A stretch of 64,000 bases of DNA. Source: a virus. Location of the stretch: positions 64,001 to 128,000 of IMG/VR virus record IMGVR_UViG_3300028827_000129, one strand, 5' to 3'. The position numbers were made by a program, and so were the translations under genes. The stretch's first letter is position 1; every line of letters starts with the position of its first letter. Positions 19,264 to 52,789 of this stretch are shown here, one piece after another. Under the pieces are notes generated by a model. It made no database searches. It saw only the letters and a list, made by a program, of their open reading frames with translations, and was not told where the DNA came from.

Positions 19264-20091
19264 ATGAGCAACGAAAAACCAAACAAGAAACAAATCGAAG
19301 ATTTGTTGGGCGAAGACATGAAAGATGTAAAGTTTTATAGTCCTGAAGGTTATGGCAGAGCAAAGAAGGCGCTTGTAACGCTTAGTGGGCTAGCTTTGAC
19401 TCAAGATGGAAAGCTAACAAAGCACGATTGGTTTGACTTTCTTGATGTTAAGCTAGACAATTATGACGATATCATTTTGTCAGCTGATGATGCTAGACGA
19501 TTACAACATTATTTCAAGAAGTTGTCTACCGGCACTGTTTCTACGATACCCATGTATTGCGGAGGAGAAAAACATTGCCCACAAGCTGACTTTTGTGAGT
19601 TTGTAAAGTTAGGTAAAATACCTTTGGGTAGAAGATGTTTAGTGGAAGTTGAGTTAGTTGATTTTTGGACCAAACGGTATCTTGAAGAATATGATGTCGA
19701 TGTAAATGACCAGACGGATGTTTATATGATTGGTGAGCTAGCTGAGCTTAATGTCTTAGAAATGCGGATTAATAACATTTTAGCCAAATTTGAAAACTCA
19801 GAATTATCTGAAGTTACAATAGCTGGTCAGGACCAAGATGGCAGACCGATAGAAACGGTAAAAATTAGCCGTTTTTGGGAAATTAAAGAGTCGATTAAAA
19901 ACCGCAGACTTAAAATACTTGAGGCATTAGTAGGAACAAGAAAAGATAAGTATAAGAGGGATGCTGCACTAAAGCGGATGGACAGTAGTGATGGAAAGAC
20001 TTCGCTTGCAGAATTAAAACGTACTATCGATGAATATTTAAAGCAGCAAGAAATTGTAATAGACCAAGCAGAAGATATTACAAGGAAGTAA
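19264..20091 (+). CDS. putative terminase small subunit
   Basis: First large gene of the virion module; helical, Cys cluster; assignment mainly positional. Confidence 0.45.
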   Translation: MSNEKPNKKQIEDLLGEDMKDVKFYSPEGYGRAKKALVTLSGLALTQDGKLTKHDWFDFLDVKLDNYDDIILSADDARRLQHYFKKLSTGTVSTIPMYCGGEKHCPQADFCEFVKLGKIPLGRRCLVEVELVDFWTKRYLEEYDVDVNDQTDVYMIGELAELNVLEMRINNILAKFENSELSEVTIAGQDQDGRPIETVKISRFWEIKESIKNRRLKILEALVGTRKDKYKRDAALKRMDSSDGKTSLAELKRTIDEYLKQQEIVIDQAEDITRK

Positions 20092-20092
20092 A

Positions 20093-23000
20093 ATGTTACA
20101 TAGTAATAATTTTTTTAGGAATGCTTGGTTTCTTGATTTTGAGACGACTGGTCTTAACCCATCCCAGCATTATATCTGGGAAGTTGGTTATGCCAGATTC
20201 AGTGATTTAGTTTCTCCTAAAGGTAAATATAGACATTTCTTCATTAAGCCCCCGGGTGAATACAACACGGGGGCTCAAGAATTTTTAGCACATTATCGAT
20301 CTATCACTTCCCCAAAAGTTCTTGATCTTTTTGGCGTCAGAGGCTCTGAGAAGCCGTTTGTCGAGCATACACGACATCTCTTATCGAAACTATCTCAAGA
20401 CGAAAGAGAACGCCTTGGATTGCATGAGAGACGTCCGTGGCAGGAAGAAATTTCATTTATTAAAGAAAGACAGAAAGGCCGCGTTACTGGGTTTGCTGCT
20501 TTAGAGCATGCTTTAAGAGGACAGAAAGGTGCTAGTCATGTTAGGTCGTTAGAAGAGTTTTGGAATAGATTTTTTATAGAAGTCCCAATGAGAGGGTCAG
20601 ATGTCTGGGTTCAAAACTTATACTTTGAATCTAGCTTTGCTGCACAACATATCCCGAATAATTTATGGACTCAACATAAGCGTTCAATAGAGCGGTTTGA
20701 CCCAATAAGCCGTCGATTTCAACAACCTCTAGAGTTATTACAGGCAAGATCAAAAGCTTTTACTGCAGGCGATCAAATTTCCGCATGGGCTGATTATTAC
20801 AAGACATTAAGAGATGTTGTAGCAGCCGGGCCACAGAAGGGACAAATGCGGTTTTTTGACCTTATGGACCTTAGCCGCAGCATGGTAGCTCTTGCTAAGC
20901 AAAGAGGATATATAAATCCTAATCAGGGTATAGGTCTTTCAGTTGAGAGCTTCTTAAGGGCTGCTACTGCATCTGGAGATAAGCAATTTGAGTCTTTTAG
21001 GGGGAAGCTTGATGAGATTTTATCATTGGGCTATGGTGATTTAGAGAAGCATAGAGCCGTAAGTGACATTAGAGTCGAAGCGTTAATGGCCCAAAGATAT
21101 CAGCGCATAGCTGAAGCTTTATACCAAGGCCATGCTTTATCTGAAGAAGACGCCGCATTGTTAAATGCTTTACAAGATAAAAAGTTACATAGAGACATAC
21201 ACATAGAAAGGTTCAAGAATACAATTAGTGAAGCATATGAAATTGCTAAGAGTCCAGCTGGATATAAGCTGCTTGTTGGTAAGTATCCAGACTTATTCCC
21301 CGAATTTGGTACATTCAGGCCTGTTGTTGAGAAAACAAGGCCAAGTTTACGTGGACAAACATTAGAGTTGGAGCAATTTAATTACAGCTATTTTCATTCA
21401 GAGGTTGCTACAGAAAAAGATTTAAAGTCTATTTTGAAGTATCATATTCATGAGCTTAAACAGTATGTCGATATCGGAAACGAAGAATTACGGGATATTA
21501 TTAAGAAAGCTATTCCAAGAGACGTTGATGTCTCTGGCATTGTAGAAAAGCCTTCATTTGCAGAGAGCGCAGCTGGTGGACTTAAAAGATTTATTCGAGC
21601 ATCGGCAAGAGACTTGAAGGGCATTAGGTATGGTAATTTACTCGGAGTGCCGCTTGGACTTCTTGCTGTTGCATATGGCGTGCGTTCATATATGATGAAA
21701 AATGAAGATGACTTTGAAGCTATTGTATCAGACGCGCAAATTTCTAGCGATGATGAGGATTATATCCAGGTAGAAGCATTAAGTCACAAGGGCCTATCTC
21801 ATATCTCCAGAAGACAGTTGACTGATTTTGGGAGTGGCTGGCAAGGATTGCCAAAGAAGATTTTCCATGGTGCTCATGTTGGGATTTTAGAAAAAGAATT
21901 CAAAGGCTTATTAGCTAGAACAACAAAGCATATTCATGAAGGTGTTGCTGAAAGAATTTATGGCGTTTGGTTTACATCAAGCTTTAAGGAAGCAGAGGAG
22001 ATAGCTCAATTAAGAGCAGCAGCAAGAGGTACAGAGCCAGCAATCTTTGAAATTGATACAGAAGTCTTGCAGAAATATCATGTGCCTTTCCAGTCGTTTA
22101 AGGCTGAAGATGATATTATGCATTATGCTGTACAAAGAGATATCCCTATATCATTTTTGAAGATGCATAAATTAAAGACGCGCAGCCTTGAGAAAGAAGA
22201 GAAGGTTTTTGAGCTTGATATTGATGATGTATTAAAAGATTCAAAAATATCAGCCAAAGATGATGATTACAATACTATCGAATCCCTAAAACATGAAGGC
22301 GTAGCCGGAAAAAAGCGTAAAAAGAATACTGATTTCGGTAGTGGATATAGAGGTTTGCTTAGTGCACATAATTGGGAAGGCAGAAATATAGCAGAAGAGA
22401 TATTGGATTTTAGAAATGAATATATTCTTGACAAGCGCAATAGAGATGATTTGCGAGGTAGATTGCACCAAGAGCAGATTAAGGCATTAGCGAGACTTGG
22501 GCGATTCAAAGGGAAAGAAGTGCATTTAGCGACCGATCTGCCTGAATTTATTCATACAAACAAGAAGTTATATTATGTAAACACTGATGATTTTAAAGTA
22601 ACTATTGAAGACGCAGACACGTTGATTCTTAAAAGACGAGGGCTTTTAAATATATTCGACAAGCCAATCTATATCCGCGTTGCTGGCCTTGACGCCCCTG
22701 AAACTGAAGCCCACGATTTAGATCCACTATCTTTTGTTAGATGGCACCAGTCACAACCTATGGGCGAAGAGACGACAGAATTATCTAGAGATGTATACAA
22801 AAATTTGTCTCGCATCTATTTCAATCCTAGCAGACTGACATATGGTAGATATGTTGGAGTCTTAACGGACGATGAAGGAACTAATTTAAACATAAAGGCC
22901 CTAGAGGCAGGCTTGGGTACAGAGCTTTATTGGAGCAGAGATAGTTTATTTAATAAATCAGATCTTAAAAATGCGGAAGATTTTGCGAAGATAAGAGGCA

Positions 23001-23323
23001 ATGGGTTATGGCAAAGTACATATTGGCTTGCAGAAGATTATATTAATCATAACATTACGCATAACACATTGACTAGGATAGACAAGCTTGCTGAGGATGC
23101 AAACTATGCCGAGCTTGAAACTTTGCTTTATGACATAGAGAATCGTGGTAAAATCACAAAGGAAGATAGGGCTAAATTACGTATTTTGAGTGATAGTATT
23201 GTTGCAGATAAGGCATATAGGAAACGTTCGATGTCTTATTATGCTTATAAAAAATATTATTCTGGGCATGTAGGGACTGTCCAGGGGCTGCACGATAGGA
23301 AAATAAGCCACACAAAGTATTAA
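20093..23323 (+). CDS. multidomain protein: DEDDh exonuclease, TM, ART-like domain, thermonuclease
   Basis: FLDFETTGL and HRAVSD; IFHG..GVWFTSS..AIFEID..IPISFL; DADTL..IRVAGLDAPET..YGRYVG; duplicated 40-aa linker. Confidence 0.8.
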   Translation: MLHSNNFFRNAWFLDFETTGLNPSQHYIWEVGYARFSDLVSPKGKYRHFFIKPPGEYNTGAQEFLAHYRSITSPKVLDLFGVRGSEKPFVEHTRHLLSKLSQDERERLGLHERRPWQEEISFIKERQKGRVTGFAALEHALRGQKGASHVRSLEEFWNRFFIEVPMRGSDVWVQNLYFESSFAAQHIPNNLWTQHKRSIERFDPISRRFQQPLELLQARSKAFTAGDQISAWADYYKTLRDVVAAGPQKGQMRFFDLMDLSRSMVALAKQRGYINPNQGIGLSVESFLRAATASGDKQFESFRGKLDEILSLGYGDLEKHRAVSDIRVEALMAQRYQRIAEALYQGHALSEEDAALLNALQDKKLHRDIHIERFKNTISEAYEIAKSPAGYKLLVGKYPDLFPEFGTFRPVVEKTRPSLRGQTLELEQFNYSYFHSEVATEKDLKSILKYHIHELKQYVDIGNEELRDIIKKAIPRDVDVSGIVEKPSFAESAAGGLKRFIRASARDLKGIRYGNLLGVPLGLLAVAYGVRSYMMKNEDDFEAIVSDAQISSDDEDYIQVEALSHKGLSHISRRQLTDFGSGWQGLPKKIFHGAHVGILEKEFKGLLARTTKHIHEGVAERIYGVWFTSSFKEAEEIAQLRAAARGTEPAIFEIDTEVLQKYHVPFQSFKAEDDIMHYAVQRDIPISFLKMHKLKTRSLEKEEKVFELDIDDVLKDSKISAKDDDYNTIESLKHEGVAGKKRKKNTDFGSGYRGLLSAHNWEGRNIAEEILDFRNEYILDKRNRDDLRGRLHQEQIKALARLGRFKGKEVHLATDLPEFIHTNKKLYYVNTDDFKVTIEDADTLILKRRGLLNIFDKPIYIRVAGLDAPETEAHDLDPLSFVRWHQSQPMGEETTELSRDVYKNLSRIYFNPSRLTYGRYVGVLTDDEGTNLNIKALEAGLGTELYWSRDSLFNKSDLKNAEDFAKIRGNGLWQSTYWLAEDYINHNITHNTLTRIDKLAEDANYAELETLLYDIENRGKITKEDRAKLRILSDSIVADKAYRKRSMSYYAYKKYYSGHVGTVQGLHDRKISHTKY

Positions 23324-23342
23324 ATTTATATTATATTACAGC

Positions 23343-23933
23343 ATGAGACAGAATCAAATATATAAATTCGCTAGACGGGCTCAAAGGTCAGTTCAACGTT
23401 TTGGTTCTAGGGTTGCTAGAGATTCAGAGCGTTTTGTTGTTGGTAACCCGATCAAGAGGGGGCTGACTTGGGGCGCATTTACGTTTGGGATTGAAGCCCC
23501 TTTTATGAAGAGCCCATTTATGAAAGCAGCTATATTGGGCGGAGGGATATTGACAGCTAATCAAGTTCTTAACAGCGAAAGGGGCGTAATTGTAGAATCT
23601 GCAGATATTATGTTTTCAGGCTTTGGTGCAGGTTTTGGATCGTCTGCTTTTGCAATGCTTGGCGGTGCTGTTATGCCTGGATTAGGTCATGTGATTGGGT
23701 GGGCGGCAGGAGCTTTAATTGGTGGCGGTTTAGGATCAGAAGTTGTTGATGAGATCCATAGAGCTGCTATAAAGGGTCATTCGTTAGCAGTGCCTACCTT
23801 TAGAGGTGGTAATAAATTTATAGATTCTGAAATGACGTATACAATGAGACAGAGGGCAGTTGCTGCTATTCAAAAATCACATATGAATGCTAGGTTTATG
23901 TTAGGCAATGAAGCAAGAATTATGCATGTTTAA
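23343..23933 (+). CDS. Gly/Ala-rich hydrophobic protein (ejection/membrane-protein-like)
   Basis: GxxxG glycine-zipper segments. Confidence 0.6.
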   Translation: MRQNQIYKFARRAQRSVQRFGSRVARDSERFVVGNPIKRGLTWGAFTFGIEAPFMKSPFMKAAILGGGILTANQVLNSERGVIVESADIMFSGFGAGFGSSAFAMLGGAVMPGLGHVIGWAAGALIGGGLGSEVVDEIHRAAIKGHSLAVPTFRGGNKFIDSEMTYTMRQRAVAAIQKSHMNARFMLGNEARIMHV

Positions 23934-23945
23934 GGGGAATATAAC

Positions 23946-24530
23946 ATGGCTAATATAAGGTCTAATGAAGGGTTTAATAGCTGGGATGCAATAAGACTTG
24001 GTACCGGGCTTATGTTAGGCGGATGGGGTATCCGCATAGCGTCTAAAGCGATGTCTCGCTTTGTTGGAGATACTCTTTTCGGTACTTTAAAAGGTGCTGG
24101 TAGTTATGCTATGAGAAAGGGGACAAAGCTTGCTGGTAGGTCTTATGAGTTCTCTAAGAATGCAGCGACTTCTGCATATTCTGGGTTTCTTTCTGGCTAT
24201 AGAGGTGAGGCTGGTGTAGGTACAGCTTTTATGGCAGGTAGTCGCGCAAGGGCTTTAAGTGCTGCAGCAAGGAGGAGCGCTTCTGCTTTTTCTTATGGTT
24301 TTTCTGGACGTGGGCCAATGTCTGCTTTTGGCGGCACTAAATATACCCGCGCTGCTGCTAGTCTTGGCAATTATTTTGGCGGTGGTGCGGCTGGCCTGGG
24401 AGCTTCTAAAACTTTATATAGCAGATTGCAGCCTCATCTTGGTGATATTTCTCAAAGGGCTTTTACTAGAGCTATGAGGGTTGGAGGAGCATCTCTAGGC
24501 GCTTATATGCTAAACCCGTTTAGTGATTGA
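23946..24530 (+). CDS. Gly/Ala/Ser-rich basic protein
   Basis: Low-complexity composition; located between TerS and TerL. Confidence 0.6.
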   Translation: MANIRSNEGFNSWDAIRLGTGLMLGGWGIRIASKAMSRFVGDTLFGTLKGAGSYAMRKGTKLAGRSYEFSKNAATSAYSGFLSGYRGEAGVGTAFMAGSRARALSAAARRSASAFSYGFSGRGPMSAFGGTKYTRAAASLGNYFGGGAAGLGASKTLYSRLQPHLGDISQRAFTRAMRVGGASLGAYMLNPFSD

Positions 24531-24538
24531 GGCAATTT

Positions 24539-26425
24539 ATGGCAGACAATGATTCTCAACGCTATGTAAAGAATGGTCCAAACTTCGACAATCCTATCTG
24601 TCAGGAATGTCTTAAAGAAGAGAGGAACCATTATGTAAAATGCAGAGGGATTATAGACCCGGAGAAGTTTATACCTCCGGGTCTTGCTACTTCACTTGAT
24701 GAGGATCAATTGCTTGAGTTAAAGGCAGCTTATGACCCTGTTACTTGGGCCAATTTATATCTTGGCTGGTCTCCAAGGTCTAGTAGGGAGTATCATTTTT
24801 ACGATAGAGATTCAAATATACCAGATATACATATAGAGGCGGGGATTGAGTATCAAAAGACAATGTTAAACTGTTCTGCCTACAGGACTATGTATCGCGT
24901 CGGTAGGCGTGCAGGTAAAACAGATGCTTTATGCGTGTTTACTCTATATAAGCTTGTAACAAATAGTGATTATAAGGTCTTGTTTATTGCCCCGCAAAAA
25001 TCTCATGTAGATAACTTTTTCGAGAGATTTGATAAGTTAATAGAAAGTAGTGATAGAATTTCTGCTGATGTTGTCAGAAATGTATCGTCGCCACATAAGA
25101 GGATAGAGTTTAGTAACGGCAGTCGTATTGTAGGCTTTACGTCTGGGTCTTCTTCTGGCTCGCAAGCCACCAATGTTCGAGGGCAGTCAGCTGATTTAAT
25201 TGTTATAGACGAGTGGGATTATCTTAATCCTGAAGACATGAAAGCTATCCGGGCTATTTTGATGACAACCCCGGATACTATTTTAAAAGGGGCGTCTACC
25301 CCTTCTGGGCGTAGAGATCTTTTCTATGTTGAGTGCAACACGATTGGCCACAAAGAATTTCATTATCCATCACAGGTTTTACCATTCTGGAATGATGACA
25401 TGGAGCGCGAAATGCGCTCTATGTATACGGCAAATGAATATAGACAAGAGATTCTTGCCGAATGGGGCTTTGATAATGTTGGTGTCTTCCAGAAAGAACA
25501 TGTAGATAAATGTCTTTTAGATTATTCATATGAAGATATAAAGCCTGAGTCAAAGTTTTTATATGGAATAGGCGTTGACTGGAATGACGATAAAATAGGG
25601 ACGCAAATTTATGTAATAGGTTATAGTACTGAAGATTGTTTATTTTATGGAGCTGCTAAATATAATGTTGCTAAAGCTGGATGGACCCAAGCTTTAGCCA
25701 TAAAGAAAATTATAGAACTAAACAGAATATGGAATCCAGTTTTTATTTACGTAGACGAAGGATATGGAGCGACGCAGATTCAATTATTACGGCAATATTC
25801 TTATGAAAAGATAGGTAAAGTTTCGCCTAGCGATCCAGATGTCAAGTTAAAGGATATAGTAAAGGGCATCAATTTTTCGTCTAAGGTAGATGTTAGAGAT
25901 CCTATTACAAGGCAGCCTGACAGAAAAGATATGAAGCAATTTTTAGTTCAGAATGCTGTTAGGCGGGTAGAAGATGCTACTGTCAGAATACCATCGACTG
26001 ACAAGGAGTTAATTGGACAATTACTTAATTATATTATTTTAAGGCGTAGCGCTACTGGCAAGCCTATTTATAGCCCGAATAGTACTAAGATAGGCGACCA
26101 TTTATTAGATGCATTTATGCTTGCTTTACTTGGGTTTACTTTAGAATATGGAGACCTTATTAAAACCAAGGCCGTGTCTACTGTCAGCTTTGTGAATACT
26201 GGTGATAGCACTAGAGAAGATTTAATCCAAAAAAGATATCCAGAAGAAAGATCGGTTGATAGAACCAATTATTTTGCTATTGGAAGAACAGGGACTGGCA
26301 AAGTAACAAGGGATAATATTTGGAAATGGCCAGGGTTTTTGAGAGATGAACCATTACCTAGACCTAACAGAATGTTTCTTGGTCGTGGTAGACGCAACCA
26401 TATAAATAGAAGGAGCGTTTGGTAA
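24539..26425 (+). CDS. terL: terminase large subunit
   Basis: Walker A GRRAGKT, Walker B LIVIDE, ASTP coupling motif, nuclease GIGVDW and DHLLDA. Confidence 0.93.
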   Translation: MADNDSQRYVKNGPNFDNPICQECLKEERNHYVKCRGIIDPEKFIPPGLATSLDEDQLLELKAAYDPVTWANLYLGWSPRSSREYHFYDRDSNIPDIHIEAGIEYQKTMLNCSAYRTMYRVGRRAGKTDALCVFTLYKLVTNSDYKVLFIAPQKSHVDNFFERFDKLIESSDRISADVVRNVSSPHKRIEFSNGSRIVGFTSGSSSGSQATNVRGQSADLIVIDEWDYLNPEDMKAIRAILMTTPDTILKGASTPSGRRDLFYVECNTIGHKEFHYPSQVLPFWNDDMEREMRSMYTANEYRQEILAEWGFDNVGVFQKEHVDKCLLDYSYEDIKPESKFLYGIGVDWNDDKIGTQIYVIGYSTEDCLFYGAAKYNVAKAGWTQALAIKKIIELNRIWNPVFIYVDEGYGATQIQLLRQYSYEKIGKVSPSDPDVKLKDIVKGINFSSKVDVRDPITRQPDRKDMKQFLVQNAVRRVEDATVRIPSTDKELIGQLLNYIILRRSATGKPIYSPNSTKIGDHLLDAFMLALLGFTLEYGDLIKTKAVSTVSFVNTGDSTREDLIQKRYPEERSVDRTNYFAIGRTGTGKVTRDNIWKWPGFLRDEPLPRPNRMFLGRGRRNHINRRSVW

Positions 26426-27835: not shown

Positions 27836-29072
27836 TAAGTTTATAAAAGAATGCGTTCCATGTTCAGAGCGGCTAAATTTGTCTGAAGAGTTTAATGTAT
27901 CAGATGATTTAGTAAATATTTTTATGCATTGGGCTGATTTTTCTTTAGAAAATGCTAAGGCTATCAATAGACTTCTTAATAGCACTGATGTCTATGACTC
28001 ATATTGTGAGTTGTTAGATTTTTTTGATTCCCAATGCGTCGTAGATCTAAAGGCCATTTTTAGCCTTCTTGCATGGCAACTTGCTAATCTTAATACTGCT
28101 TTATTGTATAATTTACGTTCTGGTATTTTTAGCTTATTATCTCCATTTTTTATGCCGCTAACTGGCAAGTTAACTGATCTTTTAAATAAGTATATAAGTT
28201 TGGTTTTGCCTAAGATTGACTGTTCTATAAATTCCCTTATTGATGTTCTAGATAAGATCCCAGGGGAAACAGAGATAGAAGAGATTGTTTATAGATATAA
28301 ACTTGCAAAAGAGGAACTGTCTACGCATGAGTACAATATAAAAAATCGTATTTTAGAAAGGGACCATGCAATTTTATCTGGTAGTGACTTATCTTCACTT
28401 AAGACGTCTTCTTATGCATCTGCTGATAATTACGGAGATGCTATAGAGATGATAAAGCAGGTAGGGAAGCGGAGTAAGTCACTGCCGAGAGACAAGTATT
28501 TCAATTTTATTGTTAAACCAATGGCTGATGCTAGAAATAAGATTAATAATAAACTACAAGAGCTTAAGAATGACCTAGAAGGATTCATTAGACTTGACGC
28601 ATCATCGTCCAGTGATTTTGCATTTTTAATCCAACAGATTACATCTGTTAAGCGCATATTGTCTTTTTTAGAGCCAGTAATAAATGGGCAATTCTCTCGT
28701 TCTGCAGCTGGATGTGATGGTACTTCCTTTTTTAGAAAGAAGCCTGATGTTGGACAAAGTGTGCCAAAAAATACCACAAATAACAAAGGGGATACATTCG
28801 GAGATAATACTGATAATACTGCAGAAGTTATGTCAAGAAATGTCGCCAAGAATGAAAAAACTATAATATCTGATGAGATAGTTTTACAAAATTTGAATGC
28901 TATTTTGGAAGATTCTGGCTTTGAAGTTGTAACAGAGAATAATAAAATAACGTTAAAAACTAAAGACTTAGATAAAAATGTTGTTTCAAGTGTACAGGCG
29001 AATTTTGGATTTTTTGCACGTTTGAGTAATGGAATTGATGCTAAGACAGATTCTAAGGATTTTTGTACATGA
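27828..29072 (+). CDS. helical hypothetical protein (~414 aa)
   Basis: Long ORF directly upstream of the portal. Confidence 0.75.
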   Translation: MSSKFIKECVPCSERLNLSEEFNVSDDLVNIFMHWADFSLENAKAINRLLNSTDVYDSYCELLDFFDSQCVVDLKAIFSLLAWQLANLNTALLYNLRSGIFSLLSPFFMPLTGKLTDLLNKYISLVLPKIDCSINSLIDVLDKIPGETEIEEIVYRYKLAKEELSTHEYNIKNRILERDHAILSGSDLSSLKTSSYASADNYGDAIEMIKQVGKRSKSLPRDKYFNFIVKPMADARNKINNKLQELKNDLEGFIRLDASSSSDFAFLIQQITSVKRILSFLEPVINGQFSRSAAGCDGTSFFRKKPDVGQSVPKNTTNNKGDTFGDNTDNTAEVMSRNVAKNEKTIISDEIVLQNLNAILEDSGFEVVTENNKITLKTKDLDKNVVSSVQANFGFFARLSNGIDAKTDSKDFCT

Positions 29073-30856
29073 GCAATATTAATAATATTAAAAAACGCAA
29101 CACAAGAAGAAAAAAGCGTGGCGCTGGCACTAATATGAATCCTGATCGTCAGTTGAAAGTTGTCAGGTCATCTCATATTCCTTTATATTACGAGGCCGGT
29201 AGGGACTCTTTTGTAGTTGCAGAATATGACTTGCGAGAAATTTCTACTATTGAAGATGTCGAGTCTTTCGTAAGACAAGCTTTTAGAAAAAAAACATCTT
29301 TAATGTTCAAGGAAGGATATGATCTTGTAGGTGAAAATATCGAAACTATAAATTATATTAAGGAGAGATTCAGGCAAATTTCATATGTTTCCGATAAGCC
29401 GATCGATTTGCTGTTGCGAGAGATTGGTGCTGACTTAATAAAGTTCTCTAATGCGTTTTTGTATAAAGCTAGAAGCGCTAGATCTTCAGGCGGGCGTGTT
29501 AGGGTTTCAAAAACGGGCAAACGTAAGTTAGACCCTGTTGCTGCATACTTTAGAATCCCACCTGAAACTGTTCAAATAAGACTTAGTAAGTCTAATAAGA
29601 TTACACATTACAGACAAATGATGCCGGATGGTAGATATAAAGATTTTGCTGCTGAAGATATTATTCATATCTATCATGATCGCAAGGCTGGGTTTATCAT
29701 GGGAACTCCGGCATTAATCCCAGTTATTGACGACATTAAGGTTTTGCGTAGGATTGAAGAAAATGTAGAGTTAATGGTATATAAAGACCTTTTCCCTCTT
29801 TATCATTATAAGGTTGGGACTGAAGATGCTCCGGCGATGACATATGGGGATGGCACTACGGAAGTTGACATAGTGCGTGATGCCATAGAACAAATGCCAT
29901 TAGAAGGTACTGTAGTAACTTCTGAACGTCATAATATTAATGTGATAGGCGCTGAAGGTCATGCATTAAAGGCTAGTGAATATCTTGATTATTTTAAAAA
30001 GCGTGTCTATGCTGGACTAGGGTGTTCTTCAATTGACTTTGGAGAAAGTGGTACTTCTAACAGATCTACGTCTGAGACTCTATCGAAAGCTCTTATAGAT
30101 GATGTGAAGGGCTATCAGAAAGTATTGTCAATCTTTATTAATCATTATATCATTAAGGAACTTTTATTAGAAAGTCCGTTTGTTGTAGGATGGAATGTTA
30201 ATACGAAGGATGAGGTTTACTTTAAGTTTAAAGAGATAGATGTAGATACAAATATTAAGAAGAGCGCTGATGCTGTTAATCTTTTTAACTCTAATTTGAT
30301 AGAAGAAAATGAGGCGCGTGAAATGATTGGATATGAGCCAATGACTGAAGAGCAGCGCAAACGGACTTTCAGTGAACTTGTTGGCAAACCAATGGCTGAA
30401 CATGAATCTTTACTTAAAAACAAAGTAGAAGGTTCTGTTTCATCTGCAAAGAATAGGGTGCAGCCTGAGAATCAACATGGGAAGAAAACAGGACCTCAGA
30501 AGTCAGTTAAAGATCTCGTATCTTTTGTTTTTGACGGATTAAAGGCAGGTAAAAATAAAGATATTAATGCCATATTAGCTTCAATGTTCAGCGATATGTT
30601 TATTGTTAAATATACTATACTTCTTGAGGAAGAAGTTAAAGATAAATTAAAACTTGAAGAATATTCTACTTTGTTAGTTAATACTGTTAATGAATCTATT
30701 AATGATTTATCTGTTATTGCTTTAGATTCACTTAATAGAGATTTAAGCAGAAATAGAGAAGATTTGCCAAGTTTAGATGTTTTAAAGAAAGTGTTTGTAA
30801 AGCATATACAAGCTACTAAAGATGGGTTCAGTGCTGCTTGTGAGCTTTTGCAATAA
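29069..30856 (+). CDS. portal protein
   Basis: Size; position between TerL and protease; DLIKFSNAFLYK, EDIIHI..GFIMGTP, ENEAREMIGYEP. Confidence 0.85.
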   Translation: MSNINNIKKRNTRRKKRGAGTNMNPDRQLKVVRSSHIPLYYEAGRDSFVVAEYDLREISTIEDVESFVRQAFRKKTSLMFKEGYDLVGENIETINYIKERFRQISYVSDKPIDLLLREIGADLIKFSNAFLYKARSARSSGGRVRVSKTGKRKLDPVAAYFRIPPETVQIRLSKSNKITHYRQMMPDGRYKDFAAEDIIHIYHDRKAGFIMGTPALIPVIDDIKVLRRIEENVELMVYKDLFPLYHYKVGTEDAPAMTYGDGTTEVDIVRDAIEQMPLEGTVVTSERHNINVIGAEGHALKASEYLDYFKKRVYAGLGCSSIDFGESGTSNRSTSETLSKALIDDVKGYQKVLSIFINHYIIKELLLESPFVVGWNVNTKDEVYFKFKEIDVDTNIKKSADAVNLFNSNLIEENEAREMIGYEPMTEEQRKRTFSELVGKPMAEHESLLKNKVEGSVSSAKNRVQPENQHGKKTGPQKSVKDLVSFVFDGLKAGKNKDINAILASMFSDMFIVKYTILLEEEVKDKLKLEEYSTLLVNTVNESINDLSVIALDSLNRDLSRNREDLPSLDVLKKVFVKHIQATKDGFSAACELLQ

Positions 30857-30867
30857 GGAGATATGAA

Positions 30868-32781
30868 ATGGCTCATATATCGTTTAAAGATTTTTTCCAT
30901 TTTGATGCTAGCGCAATTAAAGATAATGTAAAGTTTTTTCATGAAACAAAGGATAGTGCTTCTGAAACTGGGCATTCAATAAAATGTCAAATCAGAGCTA
31001 CATTTTCTGCTGTTATAAATAAAAATAATAGATTTGATATGCCTCATGCTGTTAAAAAGGGCGCTGCATCATTACTTGACGAGTACCCAAAACCTATATT
31101 AGTAGGTCATTATGATGAAATTGATCCTATTGGTCGCGTCTCCGATTATGAATATGTAGATATTTCTTCACAGTTCCAAATTCCTAAAATAAAATCATTT
31201 CTTGACCCTAAGACATCTTATATATCTAAGTTAAAAGTTGTTGATTTCATTGTCGAAAACTTGATTCCGCTAAAAGGTTATAAAGGCCTTGGCTATATAG
31301 ATGTCATAGCAGACATAAGCGACCCGAGGGCTATAAGAAAGATATTAGATGGCAGGTATTTAACTGTGTCAATTGGCGGTAGATCCGACAAAATGGTCTG
31401 CTCAGTATGCAAGACGGATTGGGTTAGCGAAGATTATTGTGAACATACTCCTGGCGTCGTTTATGACGGGAAAAGGGCTTTTCTTATAAGTGGCAATATA
31501 TTATATAACGAAATATCATTTGTGAATAAGCCCGCCAATCCACATAGTCAGGTAGTGAAGATTGACGAAGCAAATAATGTGAGGGATGAAGTAAGAATTG
31601 GTTCTAATGATGATTTTAATGATCATTGCTTAGTGAGTTTTGATTTAACAGATTCTTGTCAAGGAGAAGAAGAGATGGCGGTAAAGAAGAAGAGAAAGAA
31701 GAAGGTTGAAGATATTGAAAAAGACATCAAAGATAAAGATGTCAATACTGAAGATAAAGAAGAGGTAAAAGATTCTAAAGCCAATGATGACGTAAAAGAT
31801 AATAATGTTGATGAAGAGCAGAAAGAGCATGAGAATGTAAAAGCTTCTTCTGAAGATAACGAAAATAATGGTAATGTAGTTGACGAAGAAGAAAAAGAGG
31901 ATAGTTCTAAAGAAGAAGAGCTTCCTGCTATTGAAGAAATTATCAAAGACGAAGAGGCTAATTATGAGGCGATTGCTGCTGTTTTAGATGAATTAGAGTT
32001 AAGCGATGCAAAATTAAGCGCAGAACAGCGTAAAAAGTTAAAGGGTTCTACATTCTGCGGCCCTAATAGATCTTTTCCTGTTCCTGATTGCGCTCACGTA
32101 ACTGCTGCGAAGCGTCTTTTAGGGAGATATAAAGGAAGCGGTTCTAAGTCTGCTATTCTTGCTTGCGTTGAAAGAAAGGCAAAGAAACTTGGATGTAATA
32201 AAGATGCTGAAGAAGAAAAGAGTAACAATCAAGCTACTAATGAAACTAAAGTAACTGATAAAGAGCTTCTTGAGCAATTTAATGGTCTAGTTGAGCAATT
32301 GAAAGAGCGCGGTATTTATAAGTGCCCAGAGTGTGAATCGCTCCAGAAGGATCTAGAAGATAAAAATAATGAGTTATTTGTTGTTAATTCAAGGAATACA
32401 GTTCTTGAAGATGAGATTAACGCTGTAGAAGAAAGTTATGTTGAATTAAAAGATAAATTTAATGAATATAAAAAAGACGTGTTAAAGGTATACAAGAAGG
32501 CTTTAGGAGAAGATGAGAGTATTACAGATAAAGAAGTTGAGGATTTAGATAACATTTTAGATAGCTATAAGGAGAAGATTAATAATCCTCAGTCAAAGAC
32601 AGAAGATAAGGATTTCGAAAAAATAGAAGACCCGACTCTGAAAGATGACAACAACAGTGAAGACAAGAGTAAAGTTGCTGCAGTTAAAGACATTATGGAT
32701 AAATATCATTTAATCCGTAGATTATATGGACTGAAGGCTGCTAGCGATTTTATTCAAAAATCGATCAAGAGTAACAAATAA
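30868..32781 (+). CDS. prohead protease fused to an acidic scaffold region
   Basis: PILVGH..PIGRV, TVSIG, EISFVNKPA; acidic coiled-coil C-terminus with a small DUF6582-like insert (LSAEQRKKL..FPVPDCAHV). Confidence 0.85.
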   Translation: MAHISFKDFFHFDASAIKDNVKFFHETKDSASETGHSIKCQIRATFSAVINKNNRFDMPHAVKKGAASLLDEYPKPILVGHYDEIDPIGRVSDYEYVDISSQFQIPKIKSFLDPKTSYISKLKVVDFIVENLIPLKGYKGLGYIDVIADISDPRAIRKILDGRYLTVSIGGRSDKMVCSVCKTDWVSEDYCEHTPGVVYDGKRAFLISGNILYNEISFVNKPANPHSQVVKIDEANNVRDEVRIGSNDDFNDHCLVSFDLTDSCQGEEEMAVKKKRKKKVEDIEKDIKDKDVNTEDKEEVKDSKANDDVKDNNVDEEQKEHENVKASSEDNENNGNVVDEEEKEDSSKEEELPAIEEIIKDEEANYEAIAAVLDELELSDAKLSAEQRKKLKGSTFCGPNRSFPVPDCAHVTAAKRLLGRYKGSGSKSAILACVERKAKKLGCNKDAEEEKSNNQATNETKVTDKELLEQFNGLVEQLKERGIYKCPECESLQKDLEDKNNELFVVNSRNTVLEDEINAVEESYVELKDKFNEYKKDVLKVYKKALGEDESITDKEVEDLDNILDSYKEKINNPQSKTEDKDFEKIEDPTLKDDNNSEDKSKVAAVKDIMDKYHLIRRLYGLKAASDFIQKSIKSNK

Positions 32782-32805: not shown

Positions 32806-33792
32806 ATGGCTCAACAATATAATGCTAATTTTAAACCTTGGGACCACCAGGGAACATTAACTCCTAACCTCGAAGTAATGGAGGGTGTTCGGCCTGGTAT
32901 TTATAAGGTGGCCGATTATCTTCCATTGGTTAGGTTTGATAAGTACTTTGAAGAGTTTTATGTAATTCACCGTGGTAAGGCAGTTGCTTTAGACCATGGC
33001 AACGCTATGGTTCCTGCTGGCCTGAAGGCCCAGATTGATTGGGCTGTAGATGGGGCTGGTGCTGCTATTATTCAGACTGGTTCTGATACAGCTGCAACGC
33101 AGGTAGCTAATCTTCGTGCAGCTGCTGCAGCTAATAATCTTACAGTTTACACTCAAACAGATGTTGATGAAGGTGTTGTCAATGCTGCCGGTAACGCTGT
33201 TGTTGCTGGAGAATGTGTTATTGAAAGCTTTTTGGACTTAGTAGACTCTCAGCCGCCAGCTCGCAGTTCTGTTCGTACAGTTTCAGAGGCTATCGGTGTC
33301 AATTTCCAGAATGCTTGGCGTTGGGTTGGTGGAGACGGTGTGAATCCTGCTAACTTCCGTCAGCATAACCACAATCTACAGCATGGCGTTGGCTTGCTGT
33401 GTGACTATGTTATTGAACTTCCTGCTGTGACAGATACTGATTATGCAAATGCCGCTATGACTGGTGTTGCTGCTGCTATTTACACTTCTGGGTCTCCGTT
33501 CAAGCCCGGAGATTTCTTGAAGTACGATTTCAATTCTAATTGGGTTAAGGCAGATCTTTCTGCTGATACTATTGGGAATATTTTAGGCCAGATTATTAAG
33601 GTTGACACTGACTTCCCGAAGGATTATCTTGATAGAGTTAAGACTGCTTATGATAATCTTGGCTCTACTGCAGCTCAGCGTGCCCTGAACCAAATGCCTG
33701 GTTCTGCTTCAAGCGGTATGCCTGATGCAATTAATTTCGCTGGCGGTTCATCCGCACCGACTCTGCTGTGGGTGAACTTGATCAACCGCTAA
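32806..33792 (+). CDS. head decoration / minor capsid protein
   Basis: Between protease and major capsid; strong SD; Ala/Gly-rich. Confidence 0.6.
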   Translation: MAQQYNANFKPWDHQGTLTPNLEVMEGVRPGIYKVADYLPLVRFDKYFEEFYVIHRGKAVALDHGNAMVPAGLKAQIDWAVDGAGAAIIQTGSDTAATQVANLRAAAAANNLTVYTQTDVDEGVVNAAGNAVVAGECVIESFLDLVDSQPPARSSVRTVSEAIGVNFQNAWRWVGGDGVNPANFRQHNHNLQHGVGLLCDYVIELPAVTDTDYANAAMTGVAAAIYTSGSPFKPGDFLKYDFNSNWVKADLSADTIGNILGQIIKVDTDFPKDYLDRVKTAYDNLGSTAAQRALNQMPGSASSGMPDAINFAGGSSAPTLLWVNLINR

Positions 33793-33824
33793 GCAAGATA
33801 TATCAAATAGGAGGAAAACATTCA

Positions 33825-35051
33825 ATGGAATTTAAAGATTTTCATGAATATGAGTATGTATGGCGTAGCGGTGGTCATACACCCGATGGCGATAAGGTTC
33901 CTATTACTGACGCCATTAACATCGCTAGCGCTCCTGAATATTTACCGAAAGTGATTTCAAATATTGTCAAAGAGGCTGTGGAGCCATTGCTGGTTGGCAC
34001 TAGCCTTTTACAGCGCATTAATTATAAGGCTGGACAAGTTATTTCTTTCCCTGCAACTGGTGCCTTGTCTGCAGCCGATATCCCAGAGGGTGGTGAGTAC
34101 CCAGAAACTCAACTGAACATCGCTGGTGGGACAGTTGTGGCTAACATCGGGAAGAGCGGTATTGCAGTGAAAGTTACAGAAGAAATGATCCGCTATTCTC
34201 AGTATGATGTGATTGCTATGCATCTGCGTGCAGCAGGTCGTGCATTAGCTCGCCATAAGGAAAAGAAGATTTTTGATTACATTACATCCATGGGAACTGT
34301 CTGCTTCGATAATGATAATATTTCTAATGGTATTTTTGGTCGGCCTACAACTGGTCGTGGTTTTGACGGTTCAGCTAATGGTTCTATTACAATGGATGAC
34401 ATTTTTGATACTTATGGTCAGATTGTGGCCCAGGGCTTTATTCCTGATACTCTGATTATGCATCCTCTTACTTGGACAATGTTTGTTAAGGACCCCACCC
34501 TTCGTGCTTTTGCAATGCAGGCAGGAGGCGGGACAATGTTTGCTAGCTACTCTGGTAATCCTGCTGGCAGAACTCCTTGGGATAATATGGGCGGTCTTGG
34601 TATGGGCACTGGTCAGAATGTGACTCCAAGCTCTCCTGTGAATGAGTATTCACAGACAATCACTTCTGCTCCTCAGCTGCCTAGCTATCTACCAACTCCT
34701 TTCCGGATTATTGTGTCACCTTTTGTGCCTTATAATCCTACTGGCGGGCCTAATTCCAGCCCTGTTACTGATATTTATATGGTTGATAGCCGCGAAGTTG
34801 GTGCTCTTATTGTTGACGAGGATGTGACAACTGACGAATGGAATGATCCTTCTGTGGATATCCGCAAAATTAAGCTTCGTGAGCGTTATGGCATTGCTAT
34901 TCTTAACGAGGGGCAGGCCATTGGAGTGATCAAGAATGTTGTTAATGTCCAGAATCATTGGGATTCTGGCCCGGCACAGAAGACTGGCGGTGTCCAGCTT
35001 GCTGCTGGTGAGATTTCTGAGATCAACGCTTCTACTGGCGATATCTTCTAA
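33825..35051 (+). CDS. major capsid protein (HK97 fold)
   Basis: IPEGGEYP, KSGIAVKVTEEMI..., TLIMHP, RERYG; AGGAGG SD; terminator downstream. Confidence 0.9.
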   Translation: MEFKDFHEYEYVWRSGGHTPDGDKVPITDAINIASAPEYLPKVISNIVKEAVEPLLVGTSLLQRINYKAGQVISFPATGALSAADIPEGGEYPETQLNIAGGTVVANIGKSGIAVKVTEEMIRYSQYDVIAMHLRAAGRALARHKEKKIFDYITSMGTVCFDNDNISNGIFGRPTTGRGFDGSANGSITMDDIFDTYGQIVAQGFIPDTLIMHPLTWTMFVKDPTLRAFAMQAGGGTMFASYSGNPAGRTPWDNMGGLGMGTGQNVTPSSPVNEYSQTITSAPQLPSYLPTPFRIIVSPFVPYNPTGGPNSSPVTDIYMVDSREVGALIVDEDVTTDEWNDPSVDIRKIKLRERYGIAILNEGQAIGVIKNVVNVQNHWDSGPAQKTGGVQLAAGEISEINASTGDIF

Positions 35052-51300: not shown

Positions 51301-52789
51301 TTATGCGATTATTGTACATAGAGATATTTACCGTAAAATGCTTGAAGATATGGGGCTGCAAAGGGGTGAAATAGCGAGGAGGCTTAAGCAAGCTTCTAAG
51401 ACTGGGGATTACGCGTTGTTAACAAAAGACCCTACATGGGGAAGGATGAAAACTCCAGTTGTTAGAGTTTATACAAATAAGGCTGCAGGCCTTAAAAAGA
51501 TGTCGAAGCATAATGTATTGGTCAGCGAACGCATATTAGGGTTAATTGAATCAGAAGTGCCAGTAGGGACACATATTGATACAGACGGTGACATTTTAAA
51601 TATTTTGCCGTTAAAAACTGCAACATCAAGAAATGCTGCAAAGGTATTACTTGGTCAAAAAGGTCAAGGTAAGCTGTTTGAAATGATGGATGAATTCTAT
51701 AAAAACATTCATGTTTCTACATTTGATGCTAAAAAGAGCGTGCAGTATTTTGATCCTGAAACTGGCCTGGTAAGGAAGGAAATTTTAAAAGGGCAGTTTA
51801 GAAAAGCATTAATGTCAAAGTCTGAAGTTGGTAAGATTACAAACAAAATTGAGCTATTAAGGGCGTCATTATTAAATTCTCCTTCTGTAACGCCGAGACA
51901 ACTTAGTTTGCTTGATGCTTGGTCAACCGAAATGATTGAGCGCGGTATTCTTGCTAAGCATATTTCACCTGAAGAGATTAGTAAGTACAATATTTTAAAC
52001 GACCTAGAGTCTGCTGTTGAATCTTATAGAGACCCAGATCAGGCATTTAAGCATTTAGTTTCTGCTACTCGCAAGGTGTACAATATCGCAGATATGCCAG
52101 AAGAGACAATTAGAAGTGCTTCTGTCATTAAAGATGCGAAAGGCAAATTGTTTAATATGGCTGCCTATAGAGAGCAAGAGGTAATGCTCAGAGAGATGGC
52201 TAAGCAGATGGTTGCGTTTAAGAGTTCCGCTGAATACAGAGCATTAGAAGAAGTGCATAGCTTAGCTGGCAGTAATTTTAAGAGTAAGCAAAGATTTTTT
52301 GAGAGAGTTGCTGATCTATCTGATACATCTTCTGTTGGCGCTAGGGCAAGAGCTTTTGTTGGCATTCCTGAAGAAGGTGTTGGGGCGGCAAAGAAAGTCA
52401 CGAAAGCCTTAGAAAAAGAAGCTGGCCTTTTTCAAGGTATAGCTATTTCTACTTTGCGCAAGTATAAGCGGCCTATAGGATTGGCTGTTGGTGTTTTGGC
52501 TGGTTTAGGAATGATGATGTCTAAACCAAGCGATTTAGATATAGATACTTTACAAACAGAACACGCTGAGCCTATGCCTGCTAAAGTTCCTATGGGTGGG
52601 CATAATCTACCTGTTGGACAACGTAACGGATATAAGATACGCATTCGTGCCAAAGGGGATGGGCATGATTTTGGTCATTTAGGTAGAAAAGCTGCAGATA
52701 TTGCAGGTGGTGGGAGAGTTCATGTCTCCGTAAGTGATACAAGAAGAAAACTTTATAAAGAAGATTTAGAGAAGCTTATTTATGCATAA
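48398..52789 (+). CDS. single-chain two-barrel (DPBB) RNA polymerase, probably virion-packaged
   Basis: beta-like TEDEFIAP and VKIVTRRKNVGTDIKFYGMNTK; beta'-like GKVFGS, LLTKDPT, HIDTDGDILNILPL; KSEVGKIT; ERGILAKH. Confidence 0.75.
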   Translation: MTENNDSGLRSRIRNTAVLGAAVGGSWLSLQYLATRGVHLGRASVASKSAKKIKTAVESFDAKKASEEILALLEHPDLFEYQKTAAHAAAISMAKKRSGVVREFSTLSDAIAYGETNVSFQKNLLSASRELEKTLFEEVRHREKYLKSPLRFATTDYISKPLVKQSSGFYLFAERRGSWFNDITKAISDIPGLKNRQDISALAQSMADVAASIAGTSNISVKFYAADMLHGGQIQREIIGVGFLRNNTNEAYFPILTASNKYVVGRNQTTIYAPKRVVVDPDMFVETLGAKGHVGLDVYHMSKFVEQYKTNTNINKLARSTQLDVMRHAVYSDDYGRFKPSFTRNSVRDVIRSSGFVFPTISQTAFIQKAEELIERGVDIGGIPGQHIAKNTLFLNLNKYYMFGDTGDRDKFMRMITRDVSFDPGRAQRLMQHGVDMRPIVMSADLANLMKQENDFLPRFTRLGVSEDRLRELLKRHGLEDFMPTEDEFIAPQSIRGRYIAESAGTYTLSSDTPIREELIKVAKGEQSGDIFLHEGAFLGVSPEGRAVTTKTAGEKIESVVMNDDGTVKIVTRRKNVGTDIKFYGMNTKLTGGHQGFISNKKFRALVKDILREDVGIESGHVISRLARNIEGISIGAPKSSYGHAQVEMRLANILRIMETSELSKEQFEHVSRQLYALGIKASSDNLVSKYVVENSRLNTDQIAQRLNAIESSLEEYTGIKMAKLSNVLFHDIVTRGEHLVLQGAGKRATLSRQTQAVLDTLARDEELGQYYAAIKEDVASRMNLKPENLREVAKSYLAVDRIDATPVTSAYEKYKKMFGGDIDEFLDYIYDQDIDVRRENLAALGIKDEMIGLGTTLRTETGVSLSALRISTDPSGYTGMMSISSGRPFHKSLDKAGRSLLRAVLVEGVEGEMPFAVEEALTNYIDELTNVAGKNLLKSAYSGKVFGSALLKAAGYRGGRIEGFNQDYAIIVHRDIYRKMLEDMGLQRGEIARRLKQASKTGDYALLTKDPTWGRMKTPVVRVYTNKAAGLKKMSKHNVLVSERILGLIESEVPVGTHIDTDGDILNILPLKTATSRNAAKVLLGQKGQGKLFEMMDEFYKNIHVSTFDAKKSVQYFDPETGLVRKEILKGQFRKALMSKSEVGKITNKIELLRASLLNSPSVTPRQLSLLDAWSTEMIERGILAKHISPEEISKYNILNDLESAVESYRDPDQAFKHLVSATRKVYNIADMPEETIRSASVIKDAKGKLFNMAAYREQEVMLREMAKQMVAFKSSAEYRALEEVHSLAGSNFKSKQRFFERVADLSDTSSVGARARAFVGIPEEGVGAAKKVTKALEKEAGLFQGIAISTLRKYKRPIGLAVGVLAGLGMMMSKPSDLDIDTLQTEHAEPMPAKVPMGGHNLPVGQRNGYKIRIRAKGDGHDFGHLGRKAADIAGGGRVHVSVSDTRRKLYKEDLEKLIYA

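Follow-up and report, generated by a model that had tools for sequence, protein, structure and literature searches.

A Conserved 39-Residue Junction Motif in a Family of Putative Polyvalent Proteins of Large Uncultured Phages

Introduction

What is one long gene for several apparently unrelated enzymes doing in the packaging block of a phage, and why should the same peptide recur between the enzymes? The question was raised by an open reading frame (ORF) at positions 20093-23323, plus strand, of a 64,000-nucleotide stretch of viral DNA (IMG/VR virus record IMGVR_UViG_3300028827_000129, positions 64,001 to 128,000; this whole stretch is hereafter the window), the 1076-residue product of which we call P0001. 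The original prediction, made from the letters of the sequence, had read P0001 as a modular effector polyprotein in which an exonuclease, an ADP-ribosyltransferase (ART) and a thermonuclease are set apart by two copies of a 40-residue segment. Comparison with its relatives suggests that P0001 belongs to a family of phage polyvalent (multi-effector) proteins that is defined by this segment, a 39-residue junction motif here called the linker, and not by any enzyme domain.

A Peptide Motif under Strong Selection

The two linkers of P0001 lie where the original prediction had placed them and align without gaps, with 19 of 40 residues and 67 of 120 bases identical. At 11 of the 19 residues common to both copies the codons are different synonyms, from which it follows that selection acts on the peptide. 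The same synonymous differences told against the suggestion that the segment might be a recombination signal at the level of the DNA, and a DNA-level recombination repeat was accordingly rejected.

A search with the whole protein returned a single full-length relative, P0002 (1456 residues, from hydrothermal-vent metagenomes), which has three linkers, a GNAT-like stretch between the first and second, a kinase-like domain between the second and third, and as its last part the same staphylococcal-nuclease (SNase) cassette as P0001. A profile made from five linker copies and run against 5.8 billion proteins produced 241 matches, the best 120 of which have E < 1e-28, scores of up to 309 bits and two to six copies each. 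A scan of IMG/VR contributed 48 further loci, in each of which all copies (one to six) are within a single ORF of 724-2418 residues, and after removal of redundancy the collection stood at 459 linker copies in 150 proteins, with one to six in each. All of these linker-bearing relatives are metagenomic. The linkers of P0001 itself were recovered with domain E-values of 1.3e-14 and 5.7e-21 (bit scores in Table 1) by a profile for which 268 copies from other proteins were used, and the linker profile found no further match in the rest of the window or of the complete 170,083-bp genome, apart from one with E = 0.067. That match, at positions 53832-53927 of the window within an ORF (52782-56912) for a 1376-residue tail-region product, covers profile positions 13-36 and is probably due to chance.

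Known collections were silent on the linker. It has no match in Pfam or PHROGs, and a tblastn search of 50,697 GenBank phage records with P0001 and one high-scoring linker copy found none. Among GTDB genomes (one for each of 185,579 prokaryote species), a single peptide pattern gave seven matches, none of which was confirmed, and a pattern of that kind could let divergent prophage copies escape. The string "TDFGSG" turned up in none of the papers searched. The family around P0001 and its junction motif are previously undescribed.

The motif can be written as FSGKDDxYNTIEGLxHGGxAxxxRKxxTDFGSGW, and the consensus of the 459 copies is FSGKDDAYNTIEGLRHGGLAGKLRKKLTDFGSGWQGL. Its most constant residues are F30, G31 and S32 (98-99% of copies), followed by G13, G18 and R24 (94-95%), N9 (90%) and E12 (82%); position 16 is highly conserved as H or E, and a proline follows the serine in 9% of copies. 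Some sub-classes are without the N-terminal NTIEGL half yet keep RKxxTDFGSG[YW], indicating that the second half is the core of the linker. The conserved glutamate had been proposed as a prohead-protease site by analogy with T4 gp21, a proposal that has lost ground, with the glutamate present in 82% of copies and missing along with its half of the motif in those sub-classes, against 98-99% for F-G-S. The linker is under strong selection at the protein level, and it is more conserved than the large terminase (TerL), which is only about 35% identical between the window and a related locus (L001). The invariant serine (and the threonine) of the TDFGSG core could conceivably be a phospho-acceptor; a kinase-like module is the commonest cargo of the family.

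What kind of element the linker may be can be judged from its surroundings. It adjoins unrelated modules, can be found in tandem with only 11-40 residues between copies, and forms the very N-terminus of the products of four complete genes (P0098, P0102, P0103 and P0114) that directly follow the gene homologous to gp112 of Bacillus phage 0305phi8-36. At the other end of the chain, C-terminal linkers can have just a basic tail of 40-60 residues after them. Because its flanks are unrelated and copies occur in tandem and at termini, the possibility that the linker is part of a neighbouring fold was rejected. An AlphaFold2 (AF2) model from a 149-row alignment has two short helices and no confident autonomous fold (predicted local distance difference test, pLDDT, 61; predicted template modelling score, pTM, 0.24). 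A Gly-rich hydrophobic helix stands directly ahead of roughly one in two first linkers and roughly one in eight later ones. All told, the linker looks like a peptide signal that is exposed, independent of its neighbours and very strongly constrained.

Modules Are Exchanged at the Linker

The linker is the only universal element of the family, and no enzyme module is universal. In the 150 proteins, kinase modules were counted in 101, DEDDh exonucleases in 60, SNase domains in 52 and GNAT-like modules in 12. The commonest of these cargoes, a truncated protein-kinase-like module, is usually the last in its protein and is not found in P0001. The 461 inter-linker segments of at least 40 residues fell into 93 clusters, 64 of them singletons, and a minority of the 139 representative segments matched Pfam families (SNase, several kinase families, RNase_T, intein, Zn peptidase, DnaJ and DUF2441). 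The SNase cassette may be N-terminal, in the middle or C-terminal, depending on the protein. The smallest members, of 569-580 residues (L061:8001-9710 and L062:6933-8675, on contigs of 74-110 kb), consist of a linker, a kinase, a linker and one further module, and their first linker begins at residue 1-12, showing that the N-terminal exonuclease "head" of proteins such as P0001 is dispensable.

A view of how this variety arises came from pairs of family proteins with stretches at least 60% identical, a few of which are non-independent, where 37 of 44 internal homology breakpoints were in a linker or no more than 10 residues from one. When breakpoints were placed at random, the mean over 2000 trials was 7.1 and the highest count 16; in 33 cases the observed breakpoint was at a linker in both partners. 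A BLAST segment by necessity ends where homology ends; the result is that this point is the linker. Junctions mapped at the protein level in near-identical pairs tell the same story. Identity between P0028 and P0032 is 99% as far as TDFGSG, after which the two proteins are unrelated; P0054 and P0079 agree at 99% of residues as far as the first linker and at 96% once the FGS core of a later one is reached, with different cassettes between them and neighbourhoods of otherwise equal gene sizes; and P0004 corresponds to P0085 with two insertions, both bounded by linkers. The linker therefore marks the sites at which close relatives have gained, lost or exchanged modules, often just past FGSG.

These observations bear out the central idea of the original prediction, that enzyme cassettes are slotted in by way of the linker. 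The profile search it had called for revealed copy numbers of one to six and different modules, in differing orders, between the copies. Among the findings it had named as speaking against it were a fixed architecture and a linker that folds with its neighbour; instead, architecture varies and the linker flanks unrelated modules.

The Enzyme Modules of P0001

Of the enzymes proposed for P0001, the thermonuclease was confirmed by sequence comparison. Pfam family PF00565 (SNase) matches with 32.4 bits against a cutoff of 21, and a profile of 38 SNase sequences from the family matches staphylococcal nuclease (1ey7) with E 2e-14, although the P0001 region alone has no phmmer match in the Protein Data Bank (PDB). 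Residues D842, R862, D867, E870 and R919, the equivalents of the Ca-binding and catalytic residues D21, R35, D40, E43 and R87, are in invariant columns, as is D840, so that the catalytic D, R, D, E and R noticed at the outset are indeed intact. The domain is the middle part of a single cassette (residues 756-1076) made up of a pre-nuclease region, the SNase domain and a basic tail. A count of that tail in 120 of the 150 proteins, from an iterated search, was set aside, since it probably reflects drift onto basic low-complexity sequence.

The N-terminal module resembles a DEDDh-type exonuclease, the assignment being supported below the usual threshold: RNase_T (PF00929) scores 18.6 bits against a 24-bit cutoff. 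The earlier call nevertheless finds support, given that ExoI (LDFETTGL) and ExoIII (HRAxxD) align to the PolC exonuclease 2p1j (E 0.003) and that phrog_192 matches with E 7e-9; ExoII was not placeable owing to an insert of about 100 residues, seen by comparison with family homologues. Apart from SNase and two weak exonuclease/RNase H matches, Pfam found no family in P0001.

Between the two linkers, residues 587-715 had been assigned to an ART of the KptA type, and here three weak leads agree with one another: PF18760 (ART-PolyVal; E 0.018, 16.3 bits against a cutoff of 31.2, over profile positions 3-47 of 140 only), phrog_5470 (RNA 2'-phosphotransferase; E 0.049), and neighbours in the ESM Atlas that carry PARP or Tox-ART-HYD1 (score 0.92). 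An exhaustive HMMER search of 1.84 billion representative proteins returned only P0001 itself, comparison with the PDB by sequence gave nothing meaningful, and a single-sequence AF2 model (pLDDT 45) was unusable. A possible ART is therefore a lead and not a finding. As for the transmembrane (TM) helix placed ahead of the first linker, a hydrophobic stretch of 17 residues does exist there, but it stays under a Kyte-Doolittle (KD) value of 1.6 over 19 residues and is better called TM-like.

Genome Context and Lineage

P0001 is encoded near the start of a rightward gene block of about 45 kb in a complete phage genome with direct terminal repeats. Past it come two small ORFs, TerL, the portal, a fusion of prohead protease and acidic scaffold-like region, a 328-residue protein and the major capsid protein (MCP) (Table 1). 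The order of gp112-like gene, polyprotein, small genes, TerL and portal is kept in every flanked locus inspected, on contigs of up to 207 kb. Carriers of the family include complete phages of about 170-207 kb that are distantly related to 0305phi8-36; they are large, uncultured and apparently only lytic. TerL and the portal show 30-38% identity to their counterparts in 0305phi8-36, Acinetobacter phage ME3 and Moorella phage MTATph1, and gp113, gp114 and gp116 of 0305phi8-36, in the slot equivalent to that of P0001, carry annotations as virion proteins detected by mass spectrometry.

The gene had been described as lying between the small and large terminase genes (TerS and TerL). TerL is indeed downstream, beyond the two small ORFs. 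The upstream gene is a gp112 homologue, and its product has only faint Terminase_4-like structural leads, so that the label TerS is not yet justified. The C-terminus of the 196-residue ORF product (23343-23933) is homologous to 0305phi8-36 gp115; the same protein has a Gly-rich hydrophobic stretch, FSGFGAGFGSSAFAMLGG, and faint tape-measure-like PHROG matches. In the prohead protease domain, comparison of 24-25 homologues revealed an invariant His and Ser and, adjacent, a zinc-knuckle-like Cys3His insert (C-x2-C...C-x-H). The remainder of the protease-scaffold protein is extremely acidic.

Table 1. Features of P0001 and of the surrounding packaging and head genes, with positions in the window.
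Feature	Position	Strand	Remarks
Upstream gene, 275 aa, homologue of 0305phi8-36 gp112	19264..20091	+	always precedes the polyprotein in related loci
P0001, polyvalent multi-enzyme protein gene	20093..23323	+	1076 aa; start 1 nt past stop of upstream gene
N-terminal DEDDh-type exonuclease-like module, aa 1-340	20093..21112	+	ExoI LDFETTGL, ExoIII HRAVSD, insert of ~100 aa; below Pfam threshold
Region without assignment, aa 341-513	21113..21631	+	first ~80 residues common to a few family members
Gly-rich hydrophobic TM-like segment, aa 514-530	21632..21682	+	~20 aa ahead of linker 1
Linker copy 1, aa 547-586	21731..21850	+	profile match aa 550-586, 45.5 bits
Candidate ART (H-Y-E type) module, aa 587-715	21851..22237	+	weak signals, no sequence relative
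Linker copy 2, aa 716-755	22238..22357	+	profile match aa 719-755, 65.9 bits
Conserved pre-nuclease region, aa 756-860	22358..22672	+	moves with SNase as one cassette of ~300 aa in other family members
Staphylococcal-nuclease (thermonuclease) domain	22673..23047	+	D840/D842, R862, D867, E870, R919 intact
Basic C-terminal tail, aa 986-1076	23048..23323	+	also in P0002 and other members
Small ORF, 196 aa	23343-23933		between P0001 and TerL
Small ORF	23946-24530		between P0001 and TerL
Large terminase (TerL)	24527..26425	+	
Portal protein	29063..30856	+	
Prohead protease (aa ~25-250) fused to acidic scaffold-like region	30868..32781	+	candidate enzyme that would act on the linkers
Major capsid protein, homologue of 0305phi8-36 gp125	33768..35051	+	

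A Signal Read in Trans?

With the family and its exchange junction in hand, it is not far-fetched to ask what the constant peptide might do. The reading to which we lean, if only a little, joins the polyvalent family and the exchange junction to a motif that would be read in trans and would lead to packaging, cutting and delivery of the modules. Best supported among its three inferred steps is that P0001 would be virion cargo, because its gene keeps one position among those for head and packaging, because virion proteins are encoded at the equivalent position in 0305phi8-36, and by analogy with phage polyvalent proteins, for which packaging and injection have been predicted (PMC5512222). Next in support comes the step in which the motif would be an exposed signal for a phage protein from another gene; its likeliest and most economical reader would be the prohead protease of the window, acting during head maturation. 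Precedents exist in SPN3US, where prohead proteases cut many packaged head proteins, at multiple sites, and in T4, where propeptides direct proteins to the prohead core (PMC10052503). If the protease does read the motif, the polyprotein would enter the procapsid and be split there into separate enzymes, and/or its pieces would keep halves of the motif as targeting or ejection tags, which is the least supported step; the pieces would then be ejected along with the DNA, to work on nucleic acids and proteins of the host at an early stage of infection. A bolder version makes the motif a self-sufficient, portable load-and-cut signal, such that any cargo behind it would enter the procapsid, be cut at or near FGSG and be ejected, in effect a plug-and-play socket by which evolution would have built up and reshuffled a stock of host-takeover enzymes, most of them of unknown kind; this we consider doubtful, albeit possible.

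Several points weigh against a protease-read packaging signal. None of the carriers has been cultured, and the 50,697 GenBank phage records do not contain the motif. Its 39 conserved residues far exceed the three or four that known prohead-protease sites need, which means that marking a scissile bond can be no more than part of its role. No short version of it was found among the head proteins of the window, where FGS, IEG and NxIE were looked for: the protease, MCP and TerL have none of these fragments, and KVEGS in the portal and FGS in the 196-residue ORF and in two ORFs further downstream seem fortuitous. Phages 0305phi8-36 and ME3 have a homologous protease, and the linker profile found nothing in their TerL regions, so that the protease alone does not predict the motif. 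Finally, TM-like segments beside many first linkers are unusual for capsid cargo and could point to a membrane-associated role. A predicted complex of the prohead protease domain (alignment A4) with the linker (alignment A2) scored 0.01 in a run without controls and was used neither for nor against.

Among the alternatives, the one that fares best, though we consider it unlikely, leaves the linker uncleaved, a repeated docking or tether peptide for some partner (the capsid interior, the scaffold, the portal, DNA or a host protein) in an intact protein of beads on a string. Long and strong conservation is typical of an extended binding interface, tandem copies would add avidity, the basic linker helix (RKxx) would suit the very acidic scaffold region of the protease protein, and polyvalent proteins of the N4 vRNAP type are packaged uncleaved (PMC5512222). 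Yet a pure docking tag would be needless between every pair of modules, and a motif at every module boundary, with exchange exactly there, is what processing sites of viral polyproteins look like.

It is improbable, in our estimate, that P0001 is not virion cargo at all and, after late synthesis (or early read-through), remains inside the infected cell, possibly anchored in the membrane, to degrade or modify host components, its linkers being only flexible, evolvable connectors. The Gly-rich TM-like segments ahead of about half of the first linkers would fit such a protein, and nucleases and kinases also exist as phage proteins that are not packaged, but the slot in the packaging and head block is fixed and translationally coupled in every flanked locus inspected, its positional equivalents in 0305phi8-36 are virion proteins, and flexible connectors would not hold residues at 98-99% invariance while TerL is only about 35% identical.

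Least probable is a linker that cleaves itself with no separate protease, by a Gly-Ser N-to-O acyl shift (as in SEA, Nup98 and pyruvoyl enzymes) or by Asn cyclisation (as in FlhB/YscU and nodavirus capsids): the near-invariance of F-G-S, the conservation of N9, H16 and R24 beyond the usual need of a docking peptide, the lack of a protease module universal in the family and the cassette junctions directly past FGSG speak for it, but known self-cleaving motifs act within folded domains of at least 100 residues, whereas the linker has no confident fold and flanks that are unrelated from copy to copy, and a proline after the serine in some copies and the loss of the N-terminal half in others do not suit it.

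Relation to Known Systems

The closest likeness of the P0001 family is to the phage polyvalent proteins (Iyer, Burroughs, Anand, de Souza & Aravind 2017, PMC5512222), which combine several unrelated catalytic domains (nucleases, kinases, GNATs, ARTs) in one polypeptide, are encoded beside virion or packaging genes of portal-terminase phages and vary highly in architecture. P0001 has at least two unrelated catalytic domains (SNase and exonuclease-like), to which its relatives add kinase, GNAT-like and other modules; it is encoded by a phage in a packaging context, and its architecture varies among relatives. In the published account, processing is ascribed to embedded Zincin-like metallopeptidase domains and no conserved inter-domain motif is mentioned (PMC5512222), whereas here the 39-residue motif is the sole universal element and only one of the 139 segments scanned matches a peptidase family.

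A second likeness is to T4, with its gp21 protease. There, internal proteins and Alt carry capsid-targeting sequences that are cut by gp21, and the cargo enzymes are made late. Like these, and like the head and ejection proteins of SPN3US and phiKZ (with proteases gp245 and gp175; PMC10052503), the P0001 family would use a short signal for targeting and cleavage, and N-terminal copies of the motif resemble a propeptide. The known signals are single N-terminal propeptides of separate small proteins, with cleavage motifs of three or four residues, while the signal of the P0001 family has 39 residues, is internal and repeated, and joins many enzymes, which cleavage would separate. The protease of the window is moreover of the 0305phi8-36 gp123 type (annotated as HK97 gp4 / P2 gpO-like) and not T4 gp21-like.

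With polymorphic toxins (Rhs with DPxGL, CdiA with VENN, and MuF-toxin fusions) the family shares a conserved junction motif where variable effectors are swapped. In Rhs the junction doubles as a cleavage site, and polymorphic toxins have one variable C-terminal toxin, immunity genes, and a life as bacterial secretion substrates or MuF head proteins. The P0001 family differs in having several junctions and modules per chain and in being carried, apparently, by lytic phages only. MuF, Rhs-YD and CdiA delivery domains were absent from the Pfam families found in P0001 and the 139 segments, and with several variable modules per protein P0001 was ruled out as a toxin of these kinds; MuF-toxin fusions are mentioned in the account of polyvalent proteins (PMC5512222).

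Two further comparisons can be drawn. In RNA-virus polyproteins the same recognition sequence stands at each boundary between units, as in the P0001 family, and the recognition sites have 4-10 residues in a fixed gene order. The modules of the P0001 family are shuffled and its motif is four times longer, and P0001 is no member of that class. Genes gp113, gp114 and gp116 of 0305phi8-36 and gp11 and gp12 of ME3 fill the equivalent slot, flanked by the gp112-like gene and TerL, and ME3_12 carries a membrane-protein annotation; these are separate small or medium genes with no linker and no detectable sequence similarity to P0001. Set against all of these, what is new is a junction motif that is the only constant part of its family, is repeated within one chain, and is the point at which cassettes are inserted, deleted or replaced.

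Broader Relevance

It is hard to tell from sequence which phage proteins travel in the capsid with the DNA and are the first to act in the host. Should the packaging reading hold, the motif would be a simple sequence handle on a large unexplored set of candidates, about 150 non-redundant proteins so far, whose modules mostly belong to no known family. It also illustrates one concrete route for the re-assortment of phage effectors, by exchange at a conserved junction peptide, which makes the targeting of cargo into large capsids, its processing and the action of the modules on the host directly testable. If it were to prove a portable loading and cleavage signal, chosen proteins could be loaded into phage capsids.

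Minor Observations at Related Loci

Inteins are present in the packaging block of relatives: TerL has a Hint/intein region (and LAGLIDADG) in three loci, and the gp112-like gene has one in L012, the intein-related coordinates being L010:18252-22055, L012:20885-23272, L061:11184-14195 and L012:8266-9981. L012 has in addition two GIY-YIG genes between its polyprotein and TerL, and one polyprotein of the family, P0035, itself holds an intein with LAGLIDADG.

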